Source: Antedon mediterranea (taxonomy: Eukaryota > Animalia > Echinodermata). Taken from it: DNA of 64,000 bases. Under the pieces are notes generated by a model. That model worked only from the letters and a program-made list of their open reading frames with translations, ran no database searches and had not been told where the DNA came from. Within the stretch, counting starts at the first letter, position 1, and each line of letters opens with the position of its first letter. The position numbers and the translations under genes are program-made. The stretch spans positions 19,105,045-19,169,044 of the forward strand of contig NC_092680.1 of assembly GCF_964355755.1 (NCBI RefSeq), read 5' to 3'. Positions 1,313 to 63,063 of the stretch are shown here, in pieces.

Positions 1313-1416
1313 TAAAATACATGTGGATTATGTTTTGGGATTTATTGGATGTAGACTGTAGACATTATTATATTATTGATTAGTATAGTTTACAAAACAA
1401 CACATTATTATGGCTG

Positions 1417-1512: not shown

Positions 1513-4500
1513 TTACTTTCTATGATGATAGGCCTATTCAAGAAAACGGAAGCATTAGGAAACAGTTACCATGCGGTAGCTTATAGTTTACTAAGGCTGA
1601 AAAAATGGGTATTTGGAAACTCGGACTGGGCATGCGCACACACCAAAGAACGTCTGGGAAAAGAGAGTCTGTGAACAAATTTGCTGATAAATATTGAGAT
1701 GCATGTAGACGGTAGTTATATGAGCGGCGTTTTTTGTTAAAAAAATGTCTTGTCTATATAAAAAGGCCCCTTCTTCCGTTCAGAGTTATTGCAGGTAATC
1801 AACCAATAAATGGCAAGGATAACTGTTATAAAATAACATATTTCACGGATCCACTACTGATACGAATCTAAATTATACATCTATATAGGCCTACATACAT
1901 TATAATAAATTATCTATAAGCATACGGTAGATTTAATTATTGAATATCATGATAGATTGTGGGCCCGATGGAGTAATACTTTTTATCAATTTCGATTATA
2001 GCTAGATTATACACGTATTTACTGGTTACACCTGAAACGTATAGGCCTAGTTTCTCCCGTAAAAGTGCATGTGGAACTATTATGTAACGGCGCTTACATT
2101 TGCGTGACACGGGGCACAGGCTATAACCACCGGGGCATCGAAGATGACGCTACGCACCTGCTGAACTCTGCTCACCTGAGATACCTATTAACGAGCAGTC
2201 ACGCTACAACATTCACAGTTACTTCAGTAACAAACAAAACATCTCTCATTGGAGAGAACTCATATTCTGTTCGCTGACTACATAACTGATTGATTAGGTT
2301 TAAATGTTTATTTTAATAATTTATCGCCATTACAATATTGATTGAAGTTCATTTTCGTAATTATGACAATTTATTTTACTCTCAGGCCAATATATTAGTT
2401 AGGCCTAATATACCGTAATTGGCCTACCACCATTTGATATACCGTATGACCCACCTATTTTAAAATATGTACACGTGGTGATGTCTAGGCCTATACGTCA
2501 CTTGTGAAAGAGAATTGTCTGAGAAATAACATATTTATTTATTTATTACAAATTTGATACCAACTTGACCAGGGCGTGGTTAGATAATAACGCAGAAGTA
2601 TATTATTATTATTATAAATATAATTTGATATATAAATATATAAAGTATATAAAAAATATGAAAATGTTAAAATAAAAGAGAAATGCACATAACACGTTAG
2701 GCCTACAGATAAAAAAAGTTAGAAGAACATTGGAAACAGATAAGTGAGATGCGCTCTGACGAACTATGACGAAAGAGACTTTTCCCGATCGTCCTCATCA
2801 TTCCTCGATTTAAGTAGGCCTATAAACTGCAGTGCATACGAACAAAACAAATGATATACTTAATAGATGGTCTTTGCTTATAATGCAATAAAGTTGCGAC
2901 TAAAAAAAGTACATTGACCCTATGCTCTATGCTTATCATAAACTTCGTGGCGACAAAATTACGTTTCCGAGAAAGTTACGGAATGACATATCGTGTTTCA
3001 ATTGCGTTCTTCCTAAAGCGTCTACTAATAGAGCACCCGAAGCGCGCGACGCTATACTTAGCCTTGTTGACATTTAATAACATTTCGCTGAAATATTACT
3101 AGGACAAGGACTACAAAAGTGACATCGACTAATGACCTAACGGTTATCGACAGTAAACGTGATATTTAATTACATCATTTATTAAAATCGATTCCATCAG
3201 GTCGAAAGCCTTAAAAGGAGCAATTAACGCCCATGGCTCCAAAGACAACAACAGTGCAGACACAAGTTTTTATGATATGTTTGTGATTTACATTATGACA
3301 ACTTATAACAAAAACAATAATATTAATCATTCGATACTGTTGTTATGTGAACTAGATCCATCTGTTTGTGTTTGTTATTTGTAGTTTTTCGGATGTTTAT
3401 TTCCTCCGTTATTGACAACACAACAAGACCTTATAAATAAACATATTTGGGTCACTATGGGGTATTGACCTATGAGACCACGCCCATAATGTTGCTAGGC
3501 GTGGAAATATAGCTCCTTTCAGCTCATATTCAGGCATGTTTTTAAGCCTAAAAATGGTGAATACATATGAATGATGAATACAAACTTCAATAAAAGGGGA
3601 CCTTCGGGGTTCCCCTTAATAGGAGCCCATTGAATAAGAGGAGTTTACCCTGAACAGCGGGTTGCTGTTATTGTGTTAAAAACATTATTTCCATTTGTTC
3701 TATTTAGGTGGTGTTCACAGAATCTGTGTGTCCCGAGAGGGTTTTACTACTGAAACTATCAATCTTAATGAGTTTTGTATACGATGTTCTGATTTTTGTA
3801 CAGGCTTTTACACATTTCAAGTGTGTAACTATGCTATTATGATATTCAAGCGATTAAGTTTTAAATATATCCGATACGAAAATTGTTGTTTTCCAAAATA
3901 TAAATTCAACATTGAGAGTAGGCTTACTGTATCTACGTACCTTGTTATATGAAAAACAGTTTTGTCGAAAGTGGCTTCTTAGGCTTATACTAAAATCAGT
4001 AAAAGATAGACATATCTTTTTTTTATTTATTTTTTATTAAAACTTGTATCGCACACAGGGTATGATATCGGTGGCATTTTTCTAAAATGATGATAGACAG
4101 ATTGTTCAATTATTAATTCTACAAAGATAATAATTTATTTTGTAAATTGTTTATTTTACTCTCCAATTCAGCTTACTGAAATGGACTGTTTCTGTAATAT
4201 ATGATCAATACAAGTATACAATACCCACATAGTTACCTTTCAATTTCATCATATTAGCAATTCCGCCAGGCACTCGCAAGCCTTATCTTAACACTAAACT
4301 AAAAATTCGATGTGTTTTTTTTCTCGTAATTTTGATAGATTGATAGCATATTATTTGCCATAAAAATCGTCTGCGTATATGAACGTATTTATTATAAAAG
4401 TTAATGATACTGTCTACAGCATTTAAATATAGTAAAATAAGTAGGTTGGATAGACACAAAAGAAGAAAAATAAAATATAAAAGGAATTACCGCTACATTA

Positions 4501-7500
4501 GTGATATTTGAAAAGTTATCATTTTTCATTTCTATTTTGACAACATGCAGTCAGGCTGGGAGTTCGTTGGCCTGGTAATCGGTTTATCCAGTTCGCACGT
4601 TATTCCTATAATGGCAACGATTCGCTTCAATTGCTTTTATAGAGCACAGTTTCGTCATTCCGTCGTAAAAAATTATCGGAAAATATTCCCTCGCACATAT
4701 TTACTTTTCTGTATGAAATTTTTTTCTGTCGTTTATTGTGAAATGACGAATGCATGCCGTTCAGAGCAGTAATAATAAAGTAATTACCGTACTTCTGAGC
4801 TCTGCGAAATGTAATCTGTTAGGCCTACACATGCAATGGCTGTTTAATTATTAGTTTGCGTTTTAAAAGGGTACCGTTGTGTTAGGGTGTAACACCAATC
4901 CCTGTTTCGGTTCAATACAACTATATTAACGTCAAAAACATACTCATTTATTAATAAGTGAATAAGTTACCAATTTTATAAATAAAGCGTTAGCCTAATC
5001 GATATAATACATTATTTTATACAGTTTATACCGACGTGTGACGTATCGATATGTATCTATGTGATCTAACAAGTGACACACAGTCATTGATTGAAATTGG
5101 CATGACGTCACGTCTTTATGTAATGGAACGTTCCACGTTTATTTAAGATTCAAATTAAGTTTATAATCTGCTAACGCAACTACCCAATATTCCACAGGCT
5201 CACACGATACTCGTCAATTCATTTCATAAGTAAAAATGATGTTGTAATATACCGGCTCACGTGACTAAATTGAGGTTAACGACTTCCTATAGCCAACGGC
5301 GACCAAGAGTTCAATTAATGCGTTCGAAAGTGTCATTGGCTTAGTTGACGCGTCAGAATATGCGCAGGAGGATCAGAGACTGGATTGAGCGAACAGCAGT
5401 CGCTTGGTGATACATCCGGGAAACCTGTCGTGGCACTATCTACTACCAGCGTCGGGGCCCAGCTGTTAACATCTTCAAACTGATTTACAATATCTCATTT
5501 TTTGATTTATCGCTATATATAAATTAGTTACGAATACGATTTATTATCAATTTGAGCATACATGTCAATTAGTAATGTTGAACAGTCTTTTTAATCTATT
5601 TTAGACCACTAAACATTGAAAATCAATTACGTAACATCTATGTAACTAGTAACGCTGTATTCATATCACCTACCGTATTCTCACTTGTTTTATGAGATTA
5701 ATTGATACAGTAGGCCTACCAATGATTTTATGGTGAACACAAAGGTAGAATCCACCACTGCCAATGCCTAATGTAGTGGTGGTCTAGACCTAATCTGTTG
5801 TTAATCGTTTTATCGAAGGATAGACTATACTTTAGCATTCATATCCGTTATATAACTTTTTCCCATGGTTACATCGTGGTTACATCATGTAATTTCGCCA
5901 GAATAATTGTCGGTACGTGGTGTTGCAAGGCCCCGAATGCCAGGAAATTTGAGACATGTTGGACGTTAATGCACTCTTGTAAAATTAATAGTTATATTTA
6001 TTAAAATTCAATAAGAAACGTCGATTTTCTTGTTTTTTTGTCATTAAATGTTATTGTAAAGTTATATAGTAAGCGTCTATTAATTCGTAATAAGAAATAT
6101 ATATTACAAAATGTAAAAATAGTTTAAAGATTATGCTCGTCATTTTATGAATTGGAAATTACTATAATGTGTCAATGTTGATTCAGAAATGCGGTGGAGG
6201 TACGGTACCGTACTTATAGTGTAGTAAGTTTCTTGTTTAGATTGAATTTCAATCAGTAGGCCTACTTAATTAATTAGCGGTATATACTGTAGTTAAAAAG
6301 ATAGTGAGTGAGTCTCAACGGTTTAATTATCATTATTGCAAGAAAAAAAACCCATATAAACAAATGTCGACTGGTAAGTTGGCTGAAGGGAAACTGAATC
6401 CCTCTAGAGCCCATGTTCTCCTCTTAGTAGTACATGAAGATACAAAATATAAGTAATACATTTATCATAAAATATCAACAATTAACAAAAACTGGCAGCA
6501 GTTACCAGATTTATCTCAAAAGTGCAACGTTTCGTTTTTCAAATTGGCACATAAATTACGGACACTCAGCAATTGCTTGTTTTGAAGGAATTGGATTTCA
6601 AAACTTAATTTTTGTGAAGTTTATCGAAATGACATCGTATACTTGTTTCGGAAATTTTCAATTACGTCATGAAATTGTTCAGATGGTGAAGACATCTGGA
6701 ATCGTTTTTCGTGCTTGAAAAAAAAAAGCATGTTTTGTTTCAGATTTACACAATTTTTCTGGGCAGTGTCCGCTAATAGGTCAACGGCATTAAAGTTCAA
6801 ACAGTGATCAGTCTACAGTAGGCTTACCGTACATGAAAATAGTAGGCCTACCAGTGTACATAGAAGCATGATTAAGGCAGATATAAAGACTATTAAGGCC
6901 CATTGAAATAAATAATTTGGGAAGATTTGTATTGAATATCGACACGACGACGTGGGGCTATCGTTAATCCTATTAATTAATTTCACGAACATGTCCACGA
7001 ATTACGAAAACAAATTTGATTGCGTCTGCAAATCGATTGGAACAAGCTTCGAGAGAATCGGTCTAAAACACTATGAATGATTCATTTGTTAATTTAGGTG
7101 TAATGTAGGCCTAAATTTTGTTTCAATATGTTCACTTTATATATCGTTAACTCCAGTCTTAGTTAGTTTAGACTTTATTTACCATACGTTCATGCTGATA
7201 TCACTTCAGGAACAAAGTGGGTTTGTTCGAACCCTCGAATTACCCCCTACCCTCTGGCTGGCTACGGGCTTGAAATGTTTCATATTTTTAGTTTTCAAAA
7301 CAGATTTAAGAATAGATTACTATAATTCTCCCATGTGGGATTAAATCGTTTGAGAATCCGTTTGCATGAATCGTGGGAGGCGAACACACAGCATTAGGCT
7401 ACTAGTCAGGCTTAACATAAGTCATGCAGTTAAGTTTTTCCAGGTTCATTTATTTGATAATTTGTCGGAGAAACACGCACTGTTGCACGCTATGTTTATT

Positions 7501-7599
7501 GGTTATTTTAATCGTCCAAAGGTTGTTTGACCAGGGTACAGAAGTTTCTATAGATATTTCATTGCCATATGTTGGTGTTGGTTCGCTATCTCGGTTTTA

Positions 7600-7762
7600 A
7601 GCTCTGTCTACACTTTCAAACTTTATGTGAAAAAAAGTGTGATGTGCCAATATATGGTAGTGATATACCTAAATATGGTAGAGTGATATATGACATCATC
7701 ATGTCCATATGGGCACATCACACTTTTTGTCTCACATACAGTTTGATCGTATAGACAGAGCT
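7600..7762. mobile_element. MITE family B (Harbinger-like TIR AGCTCTGTCTACACT)
   Basis: TTA|AGCTCTGTCTACACTTTCAAACT...AGTTTGATCGTATAGACAGAGCT|TAA, internal AATATGGTAGTGATAT units; homologous to 33708-33954 and a decayed inverted copy at ~10805-10922. Confidence 0.85.
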
Positions 7763-7910
7763 TAAGGTTGAAAACAAATTATTCTTTGATTTTTCTTCTG
7801 CTCTGATAAACTTCAAGGTCGCCAATGCAGCATGGTTCATCAAAGCATATTTGTTATAAATATAATGATGACGAACTTCTGCAGCTGCGGTGGAGTGCTA
7901 AGATTGTTTC

Positions 7911-8044
7911 CACACGTGCGTTATCACGGCGCGTTGAATGTACTATCTCATGATAATGCGCCCGAGAGGTCGCCTACACACGTGCGTTATCACGGCGCGT
8001 TGAATGTACTATCTCATGATAATGCGCCTGAGAGGTCGCCTACA
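7911..8044. repeat. 66-bp CpG-rich tandem duplication
   Basis: CACACGTGCGTTATCACGGCGCGTTGAATG...GAGAGGTCGCCTA twice (7911, 7977), one substitution. Confidence 0.92.
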
Positions 8045-11000
8045 TCAGTCACTTTAACTTATATATAACAAATCCAGGTTAATATACATTACATTTGTTA
8101 AAATAGCCGATTTACCTATCGAGCATTTACCGTTTTGACGCTACAATTATGTGATTAACGTTCGATGATTCTGCTCGCACAATCCAAGTATTTGCTGGGG
8201 CGTTGCCCCAGTCCATTTATTTTTAAATCGTAGTCGTTAGTATTACTGCACTTCATTCTCAATATCAGCTTCAAGGCCACTTGCTCATAACTAATACCGA
8301 CACACTTTTGAAATCATGACCTTATAAAGCTGCATAAGACTTATTAATACAAATATGAATAGCATATGATTGATAAAGTAACGTGTAAAATGTGTAAGTG
8401 TTGCAGACCAAATCGAAAACGCAATAAAGAGTGCAGTTATTGCAGTGGGTTTGGTTTTCGAGGTCCATCTTTTCGATAGTTTTTTTTATACGATATGAAA
8501 CGTCTATAGACACATAAATGAAGATATATGCGATGCAAGTAAAGCATTTAACATTACATAGGCCTATATTATATTTTGACGACTTTGCCGTATGCTATAT
8601 AGGCCTATGTTAAAAAAAAATGATGTTCCTATTGAATACAATTTTTGATTCAACATAATGTTAACATGTTATATTCTTATCACTAGCAATTTCTCATATA
8701 GTTTTAAATGATCTACTTCTTCAGTATGTTTTATAGTACATATTTTGAACATTTTATTTTAACATATATAATATTATATAAATATTAATGGAAATGAGAA
8801 TATTAAAGGTGGATTGGATACCCACAAAGAAAAAAAAGGAAATCATATAATTTAAATACTCGTACTGTGAAAAGAAGAGGCAGGCAGGATGGAGAATCAA
8901 AATTAGTTACAGAAGACACGATTAAAGAACGATATAAAAACCGAATGCTTTATAAATCAGGAGACGCGTGGACCTGCCATGAGTTACATCAAACAATCAT
9001 TGTCAGCATTCAAATAATAGTGCACGGCAAAAAATAACCTAAATAGAACAAGTATTTCCATTAGGGACCAGTAATTCTTAGGCTGAAATCTGAGTCGGGC
9101 ATCTACCTTCACATTAAGTCACATTTAGTGTTCAATGCGGGCAATGACTTGTTTTTCATTAACAGAACGTAATCTACAAACGGCCTAGCCAGTAGCTATA
9201 GCGGAACATAATATCGATATTTCTAGGAATATTGAATGTCATGAGATTCATATAAGAAAACCTGTCCCTAATGATGGTTGAATTGATGACTCGATCTTTT
9301 TCATCTCTTTTCAAGGTCATGCGCGATACTGTAATGTTTGACGTCATCAATCCAGGGTCGTGATTTTCAATGTGTTCGTTTTCGCACACCACGTCTCTCC
9401 AGAGAAAACACAATATTATCTTTACAGCAACTGTTTAGGGTGTTATTTACGGCCAGGTTATTTTCCCTGTTGTTTAAAGTATTAAAAATTATGAGAATAT
9501 TAAACATATTTAGGTTGCTCAATGTTTTATTACCACGAATAGGACTATAATCACGAATATAAAGAGCTTGTGATGTGATAATAGGAACACGATGGATGAT
9601 GAAAAATGTTTCGGGTTCTGAACGTTGTACAAGTGCCTATTTATCCCCTCAAAAGGAGGTCAGGTCAAATCCGTAATATTATATAATGTGATATTTGACA
9701 ATCGAGTTACAATCAAATGTAGGTTAAACGGATAGAGAGTGTGATGGGAAAGTCGGCAGTGACATACAAGTTTGGAACATACATACGTTTGTACCGATTA
9801 TTGTATTTGGTGATACTTATGCAACAGATTACCTCACGTGATCAATAATGTTTCCTTAAGAAATGGAAGTTTAGAACATGCTTACGACAGGGCTAACCAC
9901 AATTATTTCAACATCGAATGCATTATACCTTACAAATTCACATTTTATAGACATTCATAAATAGGCCTATACATTCATTGTTGATAAATTGTCCATGTAA
10001 ATTCATTATGCATATTCATAATGTGCTCCTCAAGATGATGACACCCCCTCTCGGGTAATTAGAGATAATTTTGGGGTGAAAAAACCACATGAGACAATGA
10101 GAGGGTTGGGAAACTTGTATGTAAATCTTGGCAAACCAAAACATGGCGAGTATTTTTTTAAATAATATTTGTATTCTGAACTATAGAAATATTTTGTTTG
10201 TTTGCTGCAATTGTAAGCGACCGGCTGGCCACATTTTGTGCAAAACATGATGGTAGGCCGCGCCTAATAATACCATAGTTCAATGTTCGCTTTTTAAATG
10301 AGGGTTGCGAAATCTCGATTTTTTTTAGTTATTGATGAGAGCGCGCATAACTTTGCTGTTATTTTATTTTTATAACTATTAGCACATGTGTTGTTTATTT
10401 TTCTAGGATACTCGGCAGTAAAAAGAAAATCACCGGTAATCGGCGTGATGCTATTTACATGCCGGTTAACATCTCTCGAGTTTATGTTTCCTGAAGTTAG
10501 TATGACGCGCTGCGGAATAGTATGGAGCGCCGAATAGATTAAGATAAAGAGGCGTTACGTAAAACAAGTAGGCTTATTCGTAAATATTATGACACTAATT
10601 TACATAGTATTATGTAAAATAATATGCTTACAATAAATTAAAATTACATTATATTGTTATTCAGCGCACCATACGTTCTAACGTGTAGTATATCGAGAGG
10701 TTAGGAAGAGGTTATCTTTTGTCCAGGGTTGTCGCTCAAGTAGATATAGATTTCAATATTGATGTAATTTGTTGACAACTATTATGTTGCGTGTGTTATA
10801 ATGTTATGTGATGTGCCCATATGATGATATCATACCAATACCATATTTGGGTATATCACTACCATATTTGGACACATTACACTTTTTTTATCAAACTAGT
10901 TTGATAATGTATATACAAAGCTTTAGGCCTATTGTTTTCCGTGAGTGGATTTGATGGGGGTGATTGTCTTGTAGAGGGTTGTCCGGATACGGTATACTTC

Positions 11001-14000
11001 TTCCGTCGATTTCTAAAATGATATCTTTTGCTTCTGTTTATACACGGGGTGTTTATAACATCGGAACTATTCAGAAATAACGAACATTGCCACTTGCACG
11101 ATAATGGTCAAAAAGCATACTGGAACTAACTCAATTTGTAGTCTGTTCCGACGGGTAAAATAACAATGTGCTTTTATATGTTGTGTTTGTATGTTCTGAT
11201 AATAAACAAGAAATATTTCTTACAAAATACGCTGCTCGCTTATTGACGTAACAGTTTTAAATATATATTGTCCCTCTGAAAAATATTTTTTATTTCAAAT
11301 TTGTGTTTGAATGTGTCATTTTATTGTCACATCATAGTTATTTTACCTGAAAAAATGTAATTTAATGCAAAAAATACTTAAATTGTCTGTCAGACAATGG
11401 TTTTTGAGTTATAATTAAACGTTTCTTTTCTTTTTTTATATGTGAACAAATATTATTTTTTTTGTTACAGAGTCTGTGTTTCATATCAGTCACTTTAGTT
11501 TATTTTATTGCTAAGGTCAAGTCTGGGGGTCACTTCATCATGCCTAGATACTTCATTCAATTGTGAAGTATCATCTGACAGCGAATTATATAATATGGGA
11601 CTCATAAATACCACAAACTAATGCTTTGGGATTTGTCATTCAACCGTTAGACTCTTTCCCAGACGTTTTTTGGTGGTACCTATAAATTACAGTCGAGTAT
11701 GCATTTTAGCAAAACTGTCAACCTTAGATATATAACTGCTGCTTTACTTCATCCTCCTGTGACGTAGCGGGCTAAAGCAGCAGCGTGAAAACTAACTTTT
11801 CTACACTTGAACCATGATTGAACTTAGTTATGATCTATGAGTGTGGTTTCTGTACTTCGCCATTATCTTATCCAGGGTTGTGACATCATGATATCAGTGT
11901 ATTATGCGGAAGATAGGGCAATTGGATGACGTCATGAAATGTCCTTATGTTCGTTTGATTAGAAATTCATTTTAGCCTTTTGACAATTTTTTAATGGTTC
12001 TGCTTTCATTTTCTAGAGTAGCCTACAGTTAGGTCCTACCAGTTTAGGTTGATTCACCTCTTTATGTAATGGTGATGGATGATGGAGATGTAAATATGTG
12101 TGAGTTGTAATAAAGTATTATTTTGAACATAGATTGATCAACGTTGAAGAAATACTATTGCGCCCTCTTTTTCTGTACTCATCATCCCAGAGACGCGTGT
12201 GGGTTCTGGAGATTGTGGGCGGCGGAAAGAACGTCTTGACCACCGGATTTGTAAGTTTCTCACGCCCAAAAGGCAAATTCTTAATAACAAATCTTTTCCT
12301 TGATTACATAATTAAGATATCATAATTTTACACCACCTTTTACATGAATTTAAGTAGGCGTAAGTATCTACCGTGTGTCTTAAAGAGGTGGGACCTTACC
12401 AATATGTTATACAATTAACACATGGAAGTTCAAAGTAGCCTACAGTACAAAGTTTCCAGAATTGTATAAGTAAAGGAATAAAGGGATCGTGTAATTATTT
12501 ATTTAATATTTTACCTGGCACTGTTTTGCATTACTAAAGTACAGTGAATTGAGTACTGTAATACAGGTACAAAAGAGAGACTTTTTTTATTTAAGCCTGG
12601 ACAACGCGGATACAATGATAAATAATGACGTTTTATAAAACATCGTGCGAATACGATTTGTATAAGATTATGTATTATCATCATTTGAGTATACTGTTGT
12701 ACTGTAATATTGATACATTGATGCGTATCTCAGCCCTCTCCCCAAGACATACATTGCGTCCGTAAAAATAATCGATTAAATCCGCTTAAATTACTAATGT
12801 AAACATACAGTGTATCTTCATGTTTGATCGGTGCAAACATGCCTGTTTATGATATTGACACTGCGCATAATGTAGAGAGAGAATGGCATTCGAATGCTTC
12901 AATACTGTAAAGTATGTTTGTTGTAGCACTTAAATACAACGTGGATTTGTCACGCTATCATAGTAGTACAGTACCTGTATATCGAAGCTGCATGATTGAT
13001 GGATAAAGTGCTGTGACTTATAGTGATGACATTGCAGGCCAGAGAAAGCGAGAATGCCTATGCCCAACTAAAATTGCTCGCTTTGAGGGTACGACGCCAG
13101 CGCCGTGCCGCACTCGGGCGAGGCTCAACAACAGGCCCACCAATATTTTAGTGATTTGCCGTACCATCGTGTGCGGAGTTAAAACATTTTGTTTTATTTG
13201 CTTGGTCCACCACCCCACCGCCCTTCCCCCACACGCAAAAAGCTGAGCAACGCGTTGCAAGTAAACCAATGACGCGATGGATCATCCAAACTGTCACTTG
13301 ATTGGTCAACTTTTTGTTTGTTTACGTCGTCCTTGCGTTGCGTCCAAGTGTGAATCAGGCCTAATGGTTTAGTCCAGCAGACGGTAGTTACCCGGGTCCG
13401 GGCGTAGTTTTAATTGAACCCGTGATGATTGTAGGTGATGATTGTCTGATCATCTGAGGCCTTTTCTGCTGATACATTATTGAATTTAGGTAATCGAATA
13501 ACACATGGACTCATCGATTATTCGATTGTTTTATTTGCTATCGTAGGAGGGGATTTATTCAGAGGTCGGGTCCGATCGGGAATAGTTTTAGTGGTGATGA
13601 TTCGCTGCTGATAGGCCTACATACGATTTGATTCTCTCTAGGCGAATTAAATAACATCCATGCTCGAATAATAACTACTCATGATTGTACTTTATATTAA
13701 GAAAATCTGGTGCCATTAACTTACATGTTGTTATTCAGGAATAATGCCCTCATTACATCACGCAACTGATTCCCCGGCCGATTTTAGTTAATTTACCAAT
13801 TTAGAATGTTGTTTATGACCTGTGCTATCGGCATTACCAATACCATTATTATGTTATGATTCGAAAACTGTTGCAACTCTTACAATAAAAAGTACACGTA
13901 TTGAACTTTGTCTTTCACTTCATTTATACTACAATAAACGCGTGTATGCTATGCTTACTCATCGGAGAAAAAGCGGAGATGGTGCAAATGGGGCGTGATG

Positions 14001-14559
14001 AAGTCCAATGTCCGATGACCATTTTACTAATCATCCGTAATATTTCAACGAATTAAATTGCTATTTATTATTATTATTATTATTGACTAACAGAATATGG
14101 CAAGTGACCCTTCCGTGCAGAGATTAGTCGTATACAGGTCACTAGGTTTTTTCTCGTCTCTATGTAATTTCACGGATGGATAGCACAGTGGTAAGCATCA
14201 CGCATATCGCTATATATTATCGCTATCAAGTTTTTGCGTTCACAGCCAGAATTTGTGGACGTGCCAATATGAAAAACTTATATAGTTGAAATGTGTGCAG
14301 TTGATAGCCAAGTGTCACGCAGATCTGGCTAACGAGGGTGATTAGGCGTGGAGTGATGACACCGCGTGATAACCCAGCGCTTTGGTTCGCAACGGGTAGG
14401 AACGGTGTTATTATTATTATGTATTACGAATACCCTGATATGAAATGTAATATTACCATTTAATGTGCTGGACACGAACCAGTGAAAGTGCGTGTGCCCT
14501 TTAATTATATAACGTTGGATAATGGTCATTTGACTGTATTGACGGGCATATCTTATTCT

Positions 14560-47800: not shown

Positions 47801-47864
47801 ATTTTATAATATTAACAATGTAGGCCCAACTTGGACGTAAGCTTCGTTCTTCGGTGCGTTCTTA

Positions 47865-50543: not shown

Positions 50544-51129
50544 AAATCAATATATTATTTGAATTCCTGGAAAGGTGTAATTTATTTTAATGTCACGGCG
50601 TCTATCAACAGCACACGGTACTATTAATGATTGAAGTTTATGTAATTACCTGGTGCGCAGAAGACCTTACCTGTAACTATATTTAAATAATTATGAATAA
50701 AATAATAGGTTATACTGTTCCATTCAGTTTTCTCTGTCGGTATCATTTATATCAATATGGTAGGCCTATAACCTTTAACTTTTCACTCTTTCCGTTTAAA
50801 TTTAGGATTTTATACTGTCCTATCATGTTTAATGTATTTTTCAGTCAGTATGCTAAACGTGCCAGTACAAATTGTATTGCATTAATTTTTCTCTAAAAAT
50901 CAATATGTCATTTGAATTCCTGGAAAGGTGTAATTTATTTTAATGCCACGGCGTCTTTCAAAAGCACACGGTACTCTATTAATGACTATGAATAAAATAA
51001 AATAGTAATACTTTCCCATTCAGTTTTATTTATGAATCATTTATATCAATATGGTAGGCCTATAACCTTTAACGTTTCACTTGAGGATTTCACATCATGT
51101 TTAATGTATTTTGCAGTCAGTATGCTAAA
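50544..51129. repeat. ~350-bp-period local duplication; second copy has internal deletions
   Basis: ATTTGAATTCCTGGAAAGGTGTAATTTATTTTAATGYCACGGCGTCT and TCATTTATATCAATATGGTAGGCCTATAACCTTTAAC...CAGTCAGTATGCTAAA each occur twice. Confidence 0.88.
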
Positions 51130-51309
51130 TGGGACTTTAATTTTTTAAGCAAGTGATACGTTTTTAAACAGATTGGACCTGTACTGTATAATCATGGTTT
51201 AAAAAAGTGAATAGGCCTACACTTCAATCATTAACTTCACTCGTCACTGGGATGGATAAACTATTACGGGGTTTGTGGAATGGAGTTTTAGAATCCTGGT
51301 ACTAGGAGA

Positions 51310-51490
51310 GGATTGAACCCTGACACTAGGTCACGATTGAACTCGTGACACTACGTCACGATTGAACCCTGACACTAGGTCTGGATTGAACCCTGACACT
51401 AGATCAGGATTGAACCCTGACACTATGTCAGGATTGAACTCTGACACTGTCACGATTGATCCCTGACACTACTGTAGGTCACGATTGATT
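51310..51490. repeat. 24-bp minisatellite (~7 units)
   Basis: GATTGAACCCTGACACTAGGTCAC consensus. Confidence 0.9.
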
Positions 51491-51583
51491 GAAGTCAAGA
51501 ACGTTAACAACCAAGTTACAGTTCCACACACAAGACTTATAAATAAATCAACCACAAATACGGTAATCTTTGTTTAATTATTA

Positions 51584-52985
51584 TTTATTTCTTAGCAAAT
51601 GTGTTGAAACAAAAATAACAGCTGCTAAGTGGTTATGCCAGCACATACCTTATTCAGCAGAAAAATAAACCCAAACAAGTACAAATTGATTATATTCGAG
51701 AAAAGATGGTTACAAAATTATGAAGAAAACTCATTATTAACAAAAAATATATATAAAAATCCTTCTGAGCTTCGGTAGAATGTTCTGTTTATAATAATTT
51801 ACGAGACTTCGTAAGCCTAAACTTCCGACCCCCTTTCTTTCGGAATGTTCTCCAAACAACACAGTTTTTGTTAAAATGTCCGCACTGTAATATTCCTCCC
51901 CATTGTGGAATGGAACATGCGGATTTTCTTAACTAAAATATGTTTGTTGATTTACTATATTTCAGTATAATATAGTTATTAGTAAACCAGATTATAATAT
52001 ATGAATATCAAAATGATAGTGTACTGTTGCAGTACAGTACGTTGCGAGTTTATTATTATTAATGAAGAACAGGTCTATATTTATTATCGTATATACATAG
52101 AGGAAAAAAACCCTTCCCAAATCAAATGTTCGAATACAGCACCATATACATCTGGTGACGTATACAGACATGAATATCCATCCCGAACTAAAACACACAT
52201 TATTGTTCTTGGAATTCGGTCATTAAACCCCGTTCAAACTACTATGAATATGAAATGAATCTTATGTTATAACAAAAGAAACTGTTTAGCACACAGTTTG
52301 AACAGGGCTTAAATTAAACTAAAATGGTATCAATACGTCATGTATTCCCATTGTAAGGGTCATTGCACATTCAGTTACATTAGTCAGAACATATACTCAA
52401 TACACCGTCCTCTACAGTGTTAGTACTCTTTTTGTTTGCATGCTTCAGTCAAGTATGCAGCAGGGACATAACTTATTAAACCTTTTGTATTCATTTGCAG
52501 CATGTTCTAAGGTGTGAAATACTAGTTTCAATTTTCAACCAGAGCCATATATAATAATGGCTCTGTTTTCAACTACAAAGTAGCGCCCCCAATTTCCAAA
52601 TTATTAATGAGCCTCGATTTCACTTCGCAGCTAGCTGTAAAGGTGTACGTTTAATTGGTACCAGTAAATTAACAAGAGATAGACCGACATTGTTTTGAAT
52701 TTAAAATTGCACAGAAATTCTGTGAAATCTCTCACAATTCCAGTGAGTATTGCACTTAGATAAACTTTGAATATTGGTCTGCAACGAACGGGCAATGAAT
52801 TATAATCCAAGTGGAATGGTGCTGTAATGTATTAACAGTGCAGAGAGTGAAATCGAGGCTTACGTACTTGTTTTGTTATGAATAAAACATTAGAATACAT
52901 ACATATTATTATAATGCTTTACAGTTAAAATCAAATACCTGTATTATCTACATGAGATATCCGTGAATCACATCTAGCATTTATT
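51584..52985 (-). terminator. Candidate SoxF polyadenylation signals (AATAAA on minus strand at ~52980, ~52049, ~51584)
   Basis: TTTATT hexamers on the plus strand downstream of the stop; which one is used cannot be told from sequence in such AT-rich DNA. Confidence 0.3.
52610..52860. mobile_element. Decayed palindromic MITE downstream of the SoxF stop codon
   Basis: Perfect 15-bp TIR AGCCTCGATTTCACT / AGTGAAATCGAGGCT, plus weaker internal inverted similarity (AGACCGACATT / AATATTGGTCT). Confidence 0.65.
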
Positions 52986-53319
52986 ATATACAACTTTAAA
53001 ATCACATTCAAGAATCAACTAACTTTAGCCTAAATGCTACGGGCTTGCATAGTATGCCAAAAAATGCATTTTAGTCTTAAACTGCGAACAATATTAAATA
53101 TAATATCTGGTCCAAAAATTCTGTCTCATTATAAAAATTGATTTTAGTAGAAAAATATTCACAATCCTTTCACCATGGGAAGAGAGGTATTTCATATAGT
53201 CGTAATTATTTGTTATGGAAGATGTATTATTTTATCACGAGATAACGGAACATGTTCCAGTTAGTCTTGTGATTACCCACAATTCACTGACTCCAGTCCG
53301 CCAGGTTGCGCGCGCGCGT

Positions 53320-54356
53320 TTACTCGTAAACGGACGCTGACGCATCTGCTAAAACAGACGATAGAAGCTCCACATCCGAGGATGACATGGCCGGTGTGGT
53401 ATCAGGAATGAGCATAGGGGTATTCAAGTACATGTCAAATTCATCTCTGTTCAAATCATTTAATTGTTCTGTTGCGGTGAACTGTTCTAATGACATGGTT
53501 GCCACATCCTCGGCAGAAAATACGTTCATGTTCGAATCAGAGTTCAAATTGAACATTTGATGATGTACATCTGGCTGCGACAGCTCGCAGAACTGTTGCT
53601 GAGGAACGTTACCATTTAACGTGGTTGAGAGTATAGTATTCATGCCGTGTTGGCACTGTTGTGTCTGGTTGCTAACAAGTTCGTGCAGGTGTGTCAGTGT
53701 TTCACACGCAGGGAACGCGGACGTCGTTGCAGTGTGAGATACGAAGCGATTGTCCGTAACCTCCTGTTTCATATTGAAATTTATATTTAGATTTCCAAGC
53801 TTGTTTGAGATACGACTCGAACTGTCGTTGCAGGACGTTTGCGTATTGAATGTAAAAACATCGTCCATCGACTCAATCGGAGACATCTCTGGGGTTGGCA
53901 AACCCATTGCATTGATGAAGCCCCTGTTATGTATAGGGGTTTGGCGAAGACCTGACGCGTTCGTTCCAGTGAAAGAGCTCAGAGGTGGAAGAGGATATCG
54001 AATTGATGTGAGCTCTTCCGAAGTGGAATTACCGTCGGTGTTGTCCAATGGGGTTGGTGATGTTCTTGGGGAAACATCAGGCGTCTGAATATTGTTATTA
54101 AAGTTTGTAGATGCCGGACTGTTGACGTCGCTTCCAACAGGCGATGGTGAAGATGACGACGATTGGGCGTTGGTACCGGAAGTCTCAGAAGAGGCTGATG
54201 ACGTTGATACGGATCGCTTGTTTCGCTTTGGGCCTTTACGTCTCCTAGGCCTGTATTTATATTCAGGGTAATCCGACATATGTTTCACTCTTAATCGTTC
54301 AGCTTCCTCTACAAATGGCCGTTTATCTGGAAGGGAAAGGCTCTTCCAAGTTTTTC
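53320..54356 (-). CDS. SoxF: SoxF coding exon 2 (rest of HMG box plus C-terminal transactivation region; full protein 452 aa)
   Basis: Polypyrimidine tract and acceptor TTTTGCAG|GA; phase-1 join rebuilds [41 protein letters not shown]. Has Sox17/18-type motifs [22 protein letters not shown] (cf. DxxEFDQYL) and terminal [13 protein letters not shown]; stop TAA at 53320-53322. Confidence 0.96.
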
Positions 54357-56944
54357 CTGCAAAATAAAAAAAAAGTGAACTTAAATTCACCTATACGGAA
54401 ACGAATGTTGATCAAATGATCATGTAGGTCTAACTCGATTTTTATCAGAGTGAATGAGGATCAATAGACAAGTTACGTGAGGTAATCAATACCACGACAA
54501 TGTATCGCGTACGTTTCTATAGGCTATGTAATCTTCAGATTCAATGCCAAAGCCAGTCCGGACTTGACATGTATAAACGACGGAATAATGGAATTTAACC
54601 ACCAACATGCGCTTGGCTTTTTCCATTTATAAAAACAAATATAAATTAAATATCTTCCGTTTAATTTTTACAGGTGAAATAATAACTTTAATAATAGTAG
54701 TAACATAATGTGGATCAGTTTATATTGTAAAACTGTTTTAAAATACTGTATCAGCAAAAATATAAAACAGCCCAAAGCTATATTTAGCTATTATGTTTGC
54801 CTGCAAACAGTTAACGCATGCGCGTTGCTACGGCGAAGGTACTTAACATCAAACGGTTAAATGATGTCACTTGTCACTTGAGAGTGTATTATAAATAAAC
54901 CCTTGTTTTCAAGGGCTCCGCTCAGCTGGGTCTGTTAAAAACAAGATTTCGATCCCGAGGCACTTGATACTGCGCATGCGTTGTGTTGGATTTCCCATTT
55001 TATGACACAAACAAGTCGCGATGACTCAGAGGTGATGCTATCAGCACTGCGCTTCGAGTTGAGGAAATTAAATGAGCTGCTACCGTTAAGAATATTGTAA
55101 TGATAATGTTATATAATTATTTAGACGTGAAATTAAAACATACATACTATCTCTAACAAACACGGTTTTTAAATAACTAATTACATAAAACCTAAATAGT
55201 TGTTTACCATCTAGAACCTACTGATACAGATGCCTTAGAAAACAACACATTAGATTGGGTACATTTAGACAGATACTATAGCAATAAATGTAAAATGGGT
55301 CTCCCTGGCTTTACAGTTTATTGGAGGTCGACCGACCGGGTGTCACGATGACACAGAAGTGTTTATGATTGGTTGGCATAGATAGAAAAGTGACAAAACG
55401 ACGATACTTGTGCATTGCAAGTTATCGGGTTTCAGAAATATAATATTTATTTTGAACAAAAGATAATGTAATATATAATATACTGTGCTTTTACAATCGT
55501 ATCGCTGGTATTTTGTGTTGTGATCGTATCCGAATCATTTATATACTCAAGAACAATTTTACTCAAATAAAACCGAATATAATATTACTAACAGTACTAA
55601 TATTGGAAAATACTGTATTTAGGCTAATTTATTTTAACAAATTAATATAAATACATCATAACAAATAATGAGCATCATAACAGAGCGTGTACACAAACAT
55701 CATATTAAACATCCTATCTATAGTAACACGAAAATACGAAATGTGCCAACATTATTCCACTTGTTAAATAAAACATGTGTGATTGAAAACTTCCGACAGA
55801 AACACACAATCATATAAACCAGATCAAAATGGTGTGCGAACAATACTTTCGTAAATAGATATGGAGATTTGTAGAAAACATACCCGTCCATGTTTTAATT
55901 TAATAATTAAATTTCAGATTATACATCACTACTGTTTATACCAAAAACAGAGTGTTTCATGTAGTCCTTTGTTAGCTCAGTTAAGTCTATAATATTAATA
56001 CATTTATTTATGCCCTAATCACGATATTATCATTGAAAACATATCACAACCAGCATTAAGCAAGATACTGTACATGTAGCATAGTTGATACAAAATGTTA
56101 GTAAGTTTAAAACTCATTAGATTAGATATTGAAATAAATGCGAATATACTGTAAAACAGGGCACAATGTGAGTTATTATAATTAATATCATTCATGTTGT
56201 ACTGTATTATTATATTATTTGTTAAACCTCTCTATACTTATTCAAGAAATACTTCTTTAAATAGCGTGTACGTAACTAATATTATAAAAACTGTGTTTTG
56301 AATAAAATATTTTCTTATTAATGCATCGAGACGATTGTATACGTTTCGTGATTTTGCCTGCAAATAATAGTAATCTACATCAACAGTGAGTTCTGTGTTT
56401 ACAAGCGTTGCATAAAAAGCATGGCAGCTTTCCATCATTAAAAATCTATCAATGCGCTAGCAAAGCTGACCTGGATTCCAGCCAGGTATAGCCGTTACCA
56501 GGGAGATATTTCCACAGCAAAGCATGAACTTCGGTTTAACCAGCTGATCGGTACTCGCTGCGGGAGGCGGGCTGCGGACTCAGGCTAAAATAAAACCACG
56601 GCCGAATCAAACAACGTAAGGTATTGATTTTTATAAATGGGAATCTGCTGTCATTGTTACACACGTCAATTGTCGATATTATGTAGATATATATCTTTTG
56701 TAAATTATTATAATAGGATACGGACGGTATCACGTGTGTTATTAAAGCAGAGAAACTAATAATAACACTGTAGTATTATTAAACACGCGTGAAAATTAAA
56801 TTTTGGGAGATTTCAAAGTTTACACAAGTTACAGCAAAAAATACTTTTTGATTACCCAAGTAAACATCATTGACTATCCGTGTTACAGTTTCAACAAAAA
56901 GACATGACATTTTGTTAACAGATACATCTACAAAAATAACTTAC
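54357..56944 (-). other. SoxF intron (2588 bp, GT-AG, phase 1) splitting the HMG box
   Basis: GTAAGT donor at 56944 and TTTTTTTTATTTTGCAG acceptor ending 54357; splicing gives a continuous HMG domain. Confidence 0.93.
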
Positions 56945-57266
56945 CGAGAATTTTGCTGAGATCCGCGTTATGAAGGTCCGGATTCTGATCGGCAAGTCTT
57001 TTTCGTTCATCCTTAGCCCATACCATAAATGCATTCATTGGTCGACGAATCCTTTGCTCTTTCTTTCCCCTTCCTCCAGTCGCAACTTCTGTGTTTTTCT
57101 GATCATTCCAAGCAACAACTCCATGGTTAATAGCGGCACTTTGTGTTTGCAGGGCCGATGCCTGGAACAATGTATTGTTCAACACAAGTTGTCCAACATT
57201 AGCATTAACGCGGTTATTATTGCGATTAAAATCGGCACGGATCAACATCTCCGAAACCGTCTTCAT
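56945..57266 (-). CDS. SoxF: SoxF (Sox7/17/18-like) HMG-box transcription factor, coding exon 1 (107 codons + 1 nt)
   Basis: ATG at 57266; encodes [38 protein letters not shown], where RPMNAFMVW is the Sox signature and AKDERKRLA is typical of group F. Ends at donor G|GTAAGT (intron starts 56944), the intra-HMG intron position known in SoxF genes. Confidence 0.96.
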
Positions 57267-57385
57267 TTTTAATCCGACAGATATAATATAAGTCCAAGAA
57301 AATAATAATAAGTCCTTGTACTGTTTCGTTAATGAACACAGCCGAAGACTATCTTGAAATCAGCTGTTCTGTAACGAATCGCGGT

Positions 57386-57418
57386 TTTTATACACAGATA
57401 AGCTCCGCCCATACGTCA
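57386..57418 (-). promoter_or_regulatory. SoxF core promoter candidate: TATA box, GATA site, GC box and CRE half-site
   Basis: Minus strand reads TGACGT (57413-57418), GGGCGG (57405-57410), CTTATCT (57396-57402), TATAAAA (57386-57392), about 120 bp upstream of the ATG; predicted TSS near 57360. Confidence 0.65.
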
Positions 57419-58514
57419 ATCGTATTCAATGAAGCGACGTTGCTATCGCGTGGACGAATCCAGTGTAACCACCCCCATATTGTTTAAACCCTGCAGAGTA
57501 AAGCAGTCAGAAACAGTGGAGCCTGTCATTTAAAATAGTTGGCAGATATCATACGCATGCTTTTGACAGTGTATTAATAATATTAGGGGTAGTGTACTGT
57601 TATAACCACGTGATATTTTGACACGGCACATGGAAAAAATTTGTTTTCATTGACTTTCTTTTATTTTTTTGTTTATTTTAACGGTCAAAATGTATATATC
57701 TTGTCTTTTAAGCATCCACTCTTAAACTAAAAACTCTTCAATCAACCAAGATATTTATATATTTATGGCCTAGTAAAATAGTAAAGACTTACATAGTATT
57801 GATTATTCAAACACTTGAACATAGCGTTGGTAGGATGATTACATATTTATAAATAATATTTAATAATCTCCAAACAGTGAAAAATATCATAATGTATGAT
57901 AATTGGTACCGTATATTAGATAACACTATCAAGACGAGGTTTCTAGTAGCTACTACTGTTATGAAACATAACATTAAAGTAAGCCTCTGAAATCTGCATT
58001 TTGTTTGATAAACACCATTATAATTTATGAATTAAATATGTATACGCAGAGGTTGAAAACACAACAAAAAGCATGTTTTACAAAATTCTATCATTATTAT
58101 TATTATTAATAATTTGGTTAAACAAAATCTATTATATAATATATATTATATGTATAATTATACTGTACGTTCATTATCTAATGTCACGGTTAGCTTACAG
58201 ACTCTAGAGGGCGCATGTACACTTTTCATTGCAACGATGTTGTAATGAACAACGTTGAAAAAATCTTACCAAATATAATAAAAATATTATACACATTGAC
58301 ATTAACATTTTCCTCAGGGCCGGTATTATTATTTTGTGCGAGTTGATTTAGGACTTTATTCCGATATTTCTACTGTTTATGCACTGGGGCTGCAATGTCG
58401 CCTCGGACAAATCAAACGATAGCCTACCCTCACCATTAATAAATAATACCATTACCAGGGAGTTGTATTTAACAATACAACTGATTATACCACCATTTGA
58501 TCATGTCATGTCAG

Positions 58515-58640
58515 CAACATCATTTAATTAATCATTATCATCATCACCGTCATTATCATAATAATCATCATCGTCATTATCATCATAATCATCATCGTCC
58601 TTGTCATCATAATCATCATCATCATCTTTATCATCATCAT
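58515..58640. repeat. Imperfect (CAT)n microsatellite
   Basis: CATCAT/CATAAT/CGTCAT runs; accounts for the His-rich ORF 58497-58685. Confidence 0.9.
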
Positions 58641-58808
58641 TTAATATCGTCAGCAAGATTTTCGATCAGTCGTATAATATCATAATTGTCACCACTATCT
58701 CTATCATCATGATTGTCGCTGTAGTTGTATACGAGTCATTATTGAACATAATATTGTTAAATTATGATTATTTCCCCGTTAAGTATCCTATCATGATTTA
58801 CTTATAGG

Positions 58809-59010
58809 CAGTGGTGTAACGGCAATGAGCGCTCACTGGCTAAACACAGGGGCCCCGTAGCTTATGGGGGGACCCATGAGCAATGCCCAGAGAGGAGAAA
58901 ACACAGGCATTAAAATTTCGAGGCTAGTCAAAACGCCCGAGGCCTACAGTATTGGTGGGCCACTTAGAGTTCCTAAACCAGGAATCTCGGGTCTCTACGT
59001 TACGCCACTG
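58809..59010. mobile_element. hAT-like MITE family E (TIR CAGTGGYGTAACG)
   Basis: CAGTGGTGTAACG...CGTTACGCCACTG; homologous in opposite orientation to 62742-62926, with decayed relatives at ~22419-22572 and ~43697-43837. No clean 8-bp TSD seen. Confidence 0.75.
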
Positions 59011-60227
59011 TACTTAAACACAGTTGTATTGCAGCGATGTTGGCACAGCTATGGTTTTTGAAAAGATAAAACATAATATCGTGTTCATCCATCATTATGG
59101 AATGCACAGAAAATAAACAGACAACAAGCTTTCATTTTCATCCTTACGAGGATAACCCCTTCCCATCCCCGCCGCCGTCGACATCATTGAATCCAAGGCC
59201 GCAGTGCTTGTAATTTGTCACGTGCTGACACGAGACCTTGGAGTATTATAATAATGATCCTGATGTTATGGACAGTTTGTCAACATCACTAATTGATGCG
59301 TACTTGATACTATTTGAGAACTTGGGTCGTGTTCGTACGGTGGTTAAAATAAGCGCTTAATTTCACCCATGCCTCGGGTTATAAATTGAGCGTTGTTCGT
59401 ACTTGAAATATTTAACCGCTTATGCTTAATCGACGAATCACAAACCGGAAATTACGTTTTAAGGTCAGTTGTCTTTACAACCTACGACCCCATTTTCGCA
59501 CGCTAGTTTCGTGTTGTATATTTTTTACTCGCGATCTTTCTTTACAATAACAATTACTTGCTACCTTTTACACTGCTTATCCTTGCGACAAACCTTATGC
59601 CTCTTAACGCCGATAATCCTGCCGAAATATGCCTTCTCCTGACGACCATTATTTTACTCATTGACGAAGAATTTGAGCCCAATGTTACACGACGGAAACA
59701 CCACCGACCAGCGGCTCCCCGACCAGCTAGGCCTACTAAGCGGTCTACACCAACAAGGACAGCACCAGCTGACGATCGCTCTCGAAGCGTGTATGGAAGA
59801 GCTTCGTAGGAGAAATGACGGGCCTAGGCAGCGAACGTTTGTCAAAATTTGACACATTGCCTCTATCGGAGATTTATTATCCTCGAAGGCCGAGTATAAT
59901 TGGATTATCGCTGAAATAACCTGCAAATTTGGTGAACATTTTACCTCGAATTTTTTGTAGCCTGAGGCAAAAGTTAATTGGATCACGCGAACGGAAATCG
60001 GGAATAAGCTGGTATTTTCAACCCCTACGAACAGGCCCTTGTATTTACTTTTTCTCTGTCTGTTATGTTTCGATTTAGAGGCCATGTATTTGTAGTGAAT
60101 TCGTTCAAATGGGTACAATTTTGAAGGTCAAAAAGTCCCAAAGTCTGCCTGCTTTATTTCGCCGGATGAAATAAACTAATTAGGCCTACTACTCTAACAC
60201 GAATGGACCTAGAAAATGTACCGTATA

Positions 60228-60838
60228 CTTCACCCTTGCCGTTGAGGCCTAATAAAGGCCTACATCGTAAACCGTTTGTCCCTTGCCGTTGAGGCCTATA
60301 AAAGGCCTACATCGCAAACCGCTTCACCCTTGCCGTTGAGGCCTATAAAAGGCCTACATCGCAAACCGCTTCACCCTTGCCGTTGAGGCCTGTAAAAGGC
60401 CTACATCGCAAACCGTTTGTCCCTTGCCGTTGAGGCCTACATCGCAAACCGCTTCACCCTTGCCGTTGAGGCCTACATCGCAAACCGTTTGTCCCTTGCC
60501 GTTGAGGCCTATAAAAGGCCTACATCGCAAACCGCTTCACCCTTGCCGTTGAGGCCTATAAAAGGCCTACATCGCAAACCGCTTCACCTTTGCCGTTGAG
60601 GCCTATAAAAGTCCTACATCGCAAACCGTTTGTCCCTTGCCGTTGAGGCCTATAACAGGCCTACATCGTAAACCGTTTGTCCCTTGGCGTTGAGGCCTAC
60701 ATCGTAAACCGTTTGTCCCTTGCCGTTGAGGCCTATAACAGGCCTACATCGTAAACCGTTTGTCCCTTGCCGTTGAGGCCTACATCGTAAACCGTTTGTC
60801 CCTTGCCGTTGAGGCCTACATCGCAAACCGCTTGTCCC
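60228..60838. repeat. Young minisatellite, 47-bp and 35-bp unit variants (~14 units)
   Basis: CCCTTGCCGTTGAGGCCTA[TAAAAGGCCTA]CATCGYAAACCG(CTTCA/TTTGT) repeated with very few substitutions. Confidence 0.95.
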
Positions 60839-62354
60839 AGTTTTCTCAATAATAAACAGTAGATCACCCACTCCTTCCAGAAGACACCTTCGGGACCCAA
60901 CAAAAAGCCCCTCTTTGGTGTGTTCTCTGAATTGGGATTAGCTTGTTAAAATATATATTGCCTGCACTCATTCGAGAAGTGTCCTCTTTATGTCATCGGT
61001 CGAAATCCATTTTTTATCTTACGCATGTAAAAAGGAGGGAATTGCCACATTTCTGGTGGGTTGCTTAATAATCGATGCAGGTTGTTTTGACAAGTTTAAT
61101 CACGAGGTACGCCTGGGATACCGATAAAGATAACGTCACTATTCGAATCGGTTATATCAAATTTCGCACGGTTACCAACTTGCCCCAGGCAAGGATGTGG
61201 GCGTTCAAACTGTTAGTTTTGATCATTAAATGACAAAGTATAATACCATGACTTAACAGTGAAAGTTAACCCTGGAAACTTGTGCAATTGCTAATGGTTA
61301 CAGGTCATAAGCTGCAGCTAAGACCTCTATTCAATATACTCAGTTGCTAGTTCTTACAACAACAATTAATAAGAAACTGACCTCGTGACTATACTGATTT
61401 TCGTAGTTCTTCGTAGGCCATATAAAACATTTATTTTGAATTACACCAGCCTGAAGTTGGTTCTAGATTTAGTGGCAATTTAGCCTGAACCGCAATCTTA
61501 TAAAGTAATGTTCTTAAAAAAAACTTGGTTGATATACATGTTCATCAACTATTAAAAACTATTTAAAAATTAACTTTAGGAGAAATAGAATATGATCATG
61601 ACCATGGCATTGGCATTCATAGTCCTTGTAAATGTGAAGATGACTGGATTTAATTGAGTCAATCGAACGATCATTAGTATAATCCGCAAGGGAGCCGAGT
61701 TTCTTGTCATCTGGAATGTTTCCTCTGTGAGCATGAGTCACATGCTAAAAACTCAAGGGCTTCCCTCTCCGTAACATAGCGCTGACTCACTGTCACATGA
61801 TTGGCTTTCACCTCGATTTGTTTTTCAGTTGTCAGCCATATAAGCCGCGGCGACGGATCGATCGGAAGTTCGACTCCGGTTGTGACCGAACATTATTCTC
61901 CAGTATTCACTGGTTTCCTGTGACAGTTTAGTTAAAAATTATCTAGGCCTAAATTATATTACCTTACCGATATAATGACACGGAGACAACATGGTAGATA
62001 CCTTGAAAAATGTGAACGCACTTCAGTATGAACTGACTCAGATAAACCATACCAACGGGGAAACTCATTTCTCCATGGTCAGACCGAGAAACTATTCCCC
62101 CATGGTCACACTGGAACTATACAAACATATGTTTCATTTCCGAATACAGTTGGATTGTTCCTCCCAATGAATTTACAATAAAAATGTCAGAATTATACTT
62201 TTTTTAGTCACAAGAATGCATATTCGCAGGAAAACATAATAGTCATAGCTGGCCTAAGAACAATTATTGAACATTTGCGATAAATATAATATTTATTGTA
62301 AATTCTGATCGTGAGAAACCGTATTATTGTCGGGACTGTTCGTAATGTGTAGTA

Positions 62355-63060: not shown

Positions 63061-63063
63061 TAA

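Follow-up and report, generated by a model that had tools for sequence, protein, structure and literature searches.

Cut-and-paste DNA transposons of the IS630-Tc1-mariner group duplicate the TA at which they insert, and on departing by a staggered cut they leave TA, some terminal bases and TA as a footprint. Sleeping Beauty, which cuts with a 3-nt stagger, produces the canonical footprints TACAGTA/TACTGTA (10.1101/659086), and Tc1 of Caenorhabditis elegans leaves taCATGta, a product called rare, from 2-nt non-complementary overhangs (PMC3520976, PMC4490562). In the stretch of Antedon mediterranea DNA analysed here (the window: 64,000 nt of NC_092680.1, GC 35.2%), the dispersed palindrome TAGGCCTA, that is TA + GGCC + TA, is present in great excess, and the comparison of sequences makes it quite likely that this word is the footprint remaining at a TA after the excision of a TA-duplicating cut-and-paste DNA transposon with predicted GG(C) ends, probably of the IS630-Tc1-mariner group. 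As in Sleeping Beauty, which gives several lengths from one element, the words are formed by TA, terminal bases and TA; unlike in Sleeping Beauty, the core is GGCC and not CAG/CTG, the 8-mer and not the 7-mer is dominant, and what is seen is a genomic fossil record without the element. With Tc1 the word shares an identical TA-NN-N'N'-TA palindromic design; however, the analogue is abundant here, and TACATGTA is not enriched in the window (2 against 2.7). No description of TAGGCCTA as a genomic footprint turned up in the literature searched, which leaves most subscription journals outside its coverage.

The first-pass annotation had listed 46 copies by eye and had put the chance expectation at about 0.6. 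A string count over the whole window returns the same 46 exact copies, all with offset 0 (Table 1), a density of 0.72 per kb, and the expectation is 0.68 at order 0 and 0.93 at Markov order 2, both unmasked. When the word is masked from the background, 0.56 copies are expected at order 2, 1.08 at order 3 and 2.44 at order 4, so that the excess, of roughly 20-80 fold, also holds under the higher-order backgrounds with which that annotation had asked it to be compared. TAGGCCTA ranks first among 2772 words of the form TA-(1-6 nt)-TA (Poisson p 7e-71), as well as first among the palindromic 8-mers of the window. Its flanks are unrelated, as claimed: a self-search of the window pairs only 50761 with 51055, which share flanks through a local duplication, leaving 45 independent sites. 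Clustering along the window is not significant (p 0.08), and an apparent 10.5-bp phasing disappeared under a jitter null, with no helical phasing (p 0.67).

Regarding the assembly, public contigs from four runs of one sample were compared over positions 1-14400, where at least one run matches the window without gaps over 16 of the 17 TAGGCCTA sites, the site at 1529 lying outside every contig piece among the matches listed. This agreement argues against an assembly artefact, and it lends no independent support, since the sample may itself be the source of the window. The long contigs are mostly identical to the window over this range, the tables of differences being dominated by high-copy repeats; differences are almost absent as far as about 8700, and substitutions are scattered over the part beyond about 13400. 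The low-difference stretch may be a homozygous tract, although variants are lost from contigs.

Both outer TA bases are present in 46 of the 61 AGGCCT cores outside the satellite (p 1e-32), and the base next outward is biased (C 37, T 33, A 14 and G 8 in 92 half-sites; p 8e-8 versus background TA), which reads as a target preference of the typical kind. Relative to the number of targets available, usage is 2.8% for GTAC and 0.06% for ATAA/TTAT, the contexts being mostly G/A-TA-C/T, with T-TA-A in two and A-TA-A in one of the 46. The palindrome is not extended in 32 of the 46 flanks, nor in any beyond the flank bias, and the word has no direct repeats of 1-10 bp beside it in the window. One-mismatch copies number 45 versus 18.7 expected, and their mismatches are spread over the four symmetric positions as 13/10/12/10 (p 0.90 against an even spread), so that the decay looks neutral; by our own arithmetic, these counts point to an average decay of about 7% per base. 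At such a decay the scars would have accumulated over a long time, and at least one event would be recent. They are probably neutral debris, some of which may have been co-opted later.

These properties bear on the alternative offered in the first-pass annotation, a ZFX-type binding site, or more broadly a putative dispersed site under selection for a ZFX/ZNF711-like protein or some homodimer. The word is palindromic and contains the ZFX core AGGCCT, with AGGCCTA in common with the ZFX/ZNF711 motif AGGCCTAG (PMC5848610), and a precedent is found in Phytophthora, where TACATGTA was interpreted as the site of a factor rather than as a footprint (PMC3520976; see also PMC11134190). However, both TAs are required here, AGGCCTAG is found 11 times against 42 for AGGCCTAC, and the G preferred by ZFX is the rarest flanking base. 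In addition, no position is more tolerant of mismatches than another, cores one base longer and one base shorter are enriched too, and one variant, at 17389, arose by insertion. The sites lie in AT-rich intergenic DNA and are not clustered at SoxF, the only Pfam-supported gene among the 132 open reading frames (ORFs) of at least 64 aa in the window: there is no TAGGCCTA inside this gene, nor any closer to it than about 2 kb, and no phasing. A ZFX/ZNF711 site would combine the AGGCCT core with the preferred AG ending near CpG-island promoters, a pattern that the word does not follow, being absent from 51220-59727 around SoxF. Given the even decay, the need for both TAs and the place of G as the rarest flanking base, a ZFX-type site is unlikely; selection for protein binding in general is very improbable as an explanation of the word.

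TAGGCCTA is accompanied by a length series. The shorter and longer variants reported in the first-pass annotation are all found where it had placed them, the one at 12436 being TAGCCTA, and their excess is real and smaller than that of the 8-mer: the 7-mers TAGGCTA/TAGCCTA occur 15 times versus 4.8 expected in the window, and the 9-mers TAGGCCCTA/TAGGGCCTA 4 times versus 0.2. TAGGCCTTA/TAAGGCCTA occurs 4 times versus 0.4. Meanwhile, TAGGTA/TACCTA is not in excess (16 versus 29 expected), and TAGCTA, TAGGGTA and TAGGCGCCTA are not enriched in the window word counts. Besides TAGGCCTATA, which is an extension of TAGGCCTA itself, TACAGTA/TACTGTA comes next in enrichment among the TA-bounded words (51 versus 13.9), and TACCGTA/TACGGTA (32 versus 7.1) and TACAGGTA/TACCTGTA (11 versus 2.8) exceed expectation as well. 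Since TACAGTA/TACTGTA are the canonical Sleeping Beauty footprints, their co-enrichment means that the window holds a known scar as an internal control. TACCGTA/TACGGTA may derive from CCG-ended elements. All these words, like the footprints of the IS630-Tc1-mariner group, are bounded by TA, and TAGGCCTA shows it duplicated on both sides as those footprints do. At one place two variant words share a single TA (Table 1), possibly because the TA of an older scar received another insertion that was then excised.

Insertion at a single TA is seen in two paralog comparisons, involving a 9-mer in the window and an 8-mer in another animal. In the 100-bp tandem array of the window, unit 2 reads GGAAG-TAGGCCCTA-AATCAG, unit 3 GGAAG-TA-AACCAG and unit 1 GGAAG-TC-AATCAG, unit 4 being too diverged for a call. 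Units 1 and 2 are identical at 96/98 positions and units 2 and 3 at 88/98, unit 3 being about 89% identical to both. A recent gain of seven bases in unit 2 is the most parsimonious account, because plain TA is present in the outgroup, unit 3, and TC in unit 1, which is 98% identical to unit 2. In a pair of metagenome loci, the TAGGCCTA at L204:20 stands against plain TA in L146, with 6 extra bases and a mean identity of 85% over the alignment. Another candidate pair, with L128, was weak and was set aside.

Both insertions would fit equally well a process other than excision that adds the word at TA, such as the repeated insertion of templated or non-templated bases while breaks there are repaired. 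Repair by polymerase theta is known to make templated inserts (PMC4490562), and no donor element was found in the window or in the metagenome loci. Nevertheless, templated inserts copy nearby DNA and should vary from site to site, and the core is constant; the flanks carry no palindrome extension beyond their bias, and the co-enriched words equal footprints known from experiments. Repair insertion is, on balance, improbable, and excision is retained as the source of the word.

The same series is found in metagenomic DNA of animal type. Scanning metagenome contigs for the motif as a pattern gave at least 120 loci, and word counts were pooled over 105 of them (260 kb, query matches masked), 15 having been dropped as motif-poor or as tandem or shared repeats. 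The pooled loci hold 144 8-mers versus 2.3 expected, 126 7-mers versus 22, 22 9-mers versus 0.9 and four GGCCCC-type 10-mers versus 0.2. They are taken as animal DNA because their Pfam matches include a rhodopsin-type receptor, a homeobox and a BTB domain. Directly chained scars number 10 of the GGC type and 19 with TACWGTA, compared to 0 and 1 in the window.

Some animal-like contigs (L186, L191, L205, L231 and L234) carry repeat families with several internal TAGGCCTA, indicating that scars can be spread by those repeats, and in L191 a 456-aa ORF without a Pfam match lies between two TAGGCCTA-bearing repeat copies. Viral contigs (121 loci) were not used as support, as the motif-rich cases, four of which were inspected, are tandem repeats or unrelated clusters. 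In L023 and L075 (9571-11673, a large viral contig), the 8-mer sits inside a 73-bp tandem repeat with 26 copies in the locus, which bears no relation to the scars.

Among the families with other duplications, ISL2EU usually has terminal repeats that begin with GG and duplicates AT in the target A-AT-T, and Harbinger duplicates TWA (PMC4482050). The ISL2EU/PIF/Harbinger (PHIS) elements thus resemble the present case in the GG starts of ISL2EU, and the window contains Harbinger-like MITEs (miniature inverted-repeat transposable elements) with G-rich ends; however, their duplications are AT or TWA, and the dinucleotide bounding TAGGCCTA is TA, not an AT within A-AT-T. Zator also has a TWA duplication, and the scar predicted for it or for PIF/Harbinger, TTA...TTA or TAA...TAA around the core, is not seen here.

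From this side, the words could be relics of resident repeats: MITEs of the Harbinger/PHIS type that end in GGCC or AGC and target TWA, fused hAT- or Academ-like ends, or pieces of the AGGCCTA-rich minisatellite at 60233-60818. One MITE does end in GGCC-TAA near 13360, two 8-mers stand beside MITE ends (10924 directly, 29439 within 30 bases), and the minisatellite holds many AGGCCTA. On the other hand, a TWA duplication predicts TTAGGCCTTA or TAAGGCCTAA, and T precedes none of the four TAGGCCTTA; the contexts T-TA-A and A-TA-A are under-represented, the word has no longer direct repeats beside it, and the satellite lacks any full 8-mer. Derivation from resident repeats is, of the explanations weighed, the one given least credence. 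Conversely, the minisatellite may itself have grown from decayed scars.

Against excision as the origin of TAGGCCTA stands, in the first place, the missing donor. The proposal of the first-pass annotation is upheld by the paralog insertions, the co-enriched canonical scars and the neutral-looking decay, and not in its GGC(C)-ended, TA-duplicating element: a search of the window and of 352 kb of metagenome loci selected for the motif yielded no TA-GG...CC-TA element whose terminal repeats match. Pfam detected no IS630-Tc1-mariner transposase among the window ORFs, nor in 30 of the 84 longest ORFs of the metagenome loci, where the matches were host genes and one hAT domain only. In the literature, Sailor is given GT or CC ends and TATA (PMC8533490), most pogo families duplicate TA (PMC7386202), and so does Mosquito/DD37E, which the text of (PMC10379824) gives as not found in echinoderms; the main texts on Sailor, pogo, Mosquito/DD37E and Repbase name no TA-duplicating family with GG ends, terminal sequences being usually placed in figures and supplements. 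Moreover, none of the 46 window 8-mers has an empty paralog in the window self-search, the in-window case being a single 9-mer (n=1), and a second metagenome pair, with L157, did not align cleanly and was rejected. No TA/TAGGCCTA polymorphism appears in 1-14400 among the differences listed for the contigs of the one sample. The pooled loci, having been chosen for the motif, show the recurrence of the series and not its frequency, and part of the 9- and 10-mers may have come from later one-base slippage.

Several donor candidates were considered and discarded. Three TA-GG...CC-TA pairs in the window are matches involving the scars themselves, the repeat of the L153 candidate runs past the TA, the L155 candidate is telomere-like, those in L231 and L234 are internal palindromic arrays, and the TAGGCAAATTATTC start shared by L140 and L146 is no terminus.

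If excision is the source, a transposon would insert at TA and duplicate it, and would later leave by a staggered cut, the end-joining repair of which would retain TA, some terminal bases and TA; the letters between the two TAs would be the terminal bases of the element. Within this model, a staggered cut with 3-nt 3' overhangs GGC on both flanks is tentatively favoured, with somewhat less than even confidence. An overlap of 3 would then give GGC or GCC, the 7-mer; an overlap of 2, in which GC pairs perfectly, would give GGCC, the 8-mer and commonest product; and an overlap of 1 would give GGCCC or GGGCC, the 9-mer. Such an overhang joined in different registers would fit the three lengths at least as well as a 4-nt GGCC. 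A point against this geometry is that TACCGGTA occurs twice in the window versus 32 times for TACCGTA/TACGGTA, with no dominance of a CCG-type 8-mer. The 4-nt cohesive GGCC overhang proposed in the first-pass annotation would account for the dominance of the 8-mer and for the 9-mers; however, it is one of three fitting geometries and needs trimming to yield the 7-mers, and it is rather unlikely to be the one used. No likelier is a Tc1-like 2-nt GG overhang filled in on both sides, which mirrors Tc1, yet its one-sided product TAGGTA is not in excess.

The remaining features of the window form the setting of the scars. The HMG box of SoxF is interrupted by the intron, and its exon 2 matches an NCBI Sox-7-like protein of Antedon mediterranea at 100% identity over 97% of the query, and a protein of Anneissia japonica at 80%. 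The absence of TAGGCCTA inside the gene has a p of about 0.05, and the longest TAGGCCTA-free gap, 8.5 kb, contains it (p 0.065 as a maximum gap), which is a weak indication that the word was purged near SoxF. The gene is context outside the scar system, and the rest of the window is intergenic, with MITEs, copies resembling short interspersed nuclear elements (SINEs) and satellites. Regarding the very high-copy MITE, a consensus of loose ends suggests a C-TWA target, as in NuwaII/Harbinger-type elements, and the stretch 47858-48372 looks like one copy of the 186-bp MITE nested in a related element. The dispersed repeat of about 290 bp looks SINE-like, with a 5' end that appears tRNA-like by eye; neither ARAGORN, run on the window, nor Rfam, covering 1-40200, gave a match.

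Table 1. Scar words and other features of the window (positions in nt of the 64,000-nt stretch).
Feature	Position	Strand	Remarks
46 dispersed exact TAGGCCTA, read as TA + GGCC + TA scars	1529..61951	.	Starts 1529, 1886, 2042, 2400, 2486, 2698, 2815, 4820, 5711, 6257, 6843, 7106, 8559, 8600, 9962, 10924, 13612, 18526, 21738, 22822, 23723, 26139, 28292, 29439, 32056, 35928, 37033, 37763, 37913, 38116, 38851, 39575, 42080, 43048, 46191, 46808, 46931, 49845, 50339, 50459, 50761, 51055, 51212, 59728, 60181, 61944
Fifteen 7-mer variants	1124..58426	.	TAGGCTA 1124, 7395, 35653, 54520, 55620; TAGCCTA 4991, 12019, 12436, 21514, 33252, 36874, 41971, 43432, 53026, 58420; about 5 by chance
Four 9-mer variants	16328..30423	.	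TAGGCCCTA at 16328 and 17389, TAGGGCCTA at 25596 and 30415
Scar-like words, interpreted as traces of other TA-targeting elements	1..64000	.	TACAGTA/TACTGTA, TACCGTA/TACGGTA, TACAGGTA/TACCTGTA; tandem arrays masked in counts
Two variant words sharing one TA	39256..39270	+	TA-AGGCC-TA-GGGC-TA, from sequence
100-bp tandem array, 4.3 copies	17201..17637	+	Supplies empty-site paralogs
TAGGCCCTA as 7-base insertion at TA in unit 2 of the array	17389..17397	+	Only series site with an empty paralog in the window
Local duplication copying one 8-mer (50761 and 51055)	50515..51129	+	Window self-search
SoxF (Sox7/17) gene, two exons, 452 aa	53320..57266; coding exons 57266-56945, 54356-53320	-	Borders read from sequence; length agrees with P0001
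Longest TAGGCCTA-free gap	51220-59727		Contains SoxF
Very high-copy MITE	7597-7765, 10807-10923, 33696-33966		AGCTC...GAGCT ends; summed contig depth >200,000
186-bp MITE family	30887-31072, 39311-39496, 47858-48372		Copies about 95% identical
Harbinger-like MITEs	13200-13363, 29258-29411		GGCCTGATTCACAC and GGGCCTTTCACACC ends beside TAA/TTA
Dispersed repeat of ~290 bp	25221-25505, 38158-38451, 7911-8044		Two copies 83% identical; 3' motif recurs in a 66-bp tandem pair
47/36-bp compound minisatellite	60233-60818		AGGCCTA twice per unit, without the leading T of the 8-mer; no full 8-mer
Foldback element, 385 bp	63063-63447		
Related GC-rich repeats	58816-59010 with 62742-62918		Inverted orientation, CAGTGG ends

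The class of mechanism considered here is already known, and what is unusual is the GGCC core, its abundance and the missing donor. Rates of excision have been poorly measured in natural germlines, because excision normally leaves little to count. If the footprint reading is true, a fixed and searchable scar at about 0.7 per kb would be a datable record of transposon turnover after the loss of the element, amounting by extrapolation to ~190,000 scars per genome if the window is typical of the 265-280 million contig letters per run, and such palindromes may pose as false transcription-factor motifs in marine invertebrate genomes. It is, in our judgement, an evenly balanced question whether a widespread TA-targeting transposon lineage with GGC ends has supplied crinoid genomes and those of other marine animals with insertions of six bases, all identical and numbering ~100,000 or more; if it did, each scar would offer two fresh TA targets, so that scars chain, excision would be a major countable source of small indels, and the ratio of 7-, 8- and 9-mers would record the cut geometry of the transposase together with the germline repair route.

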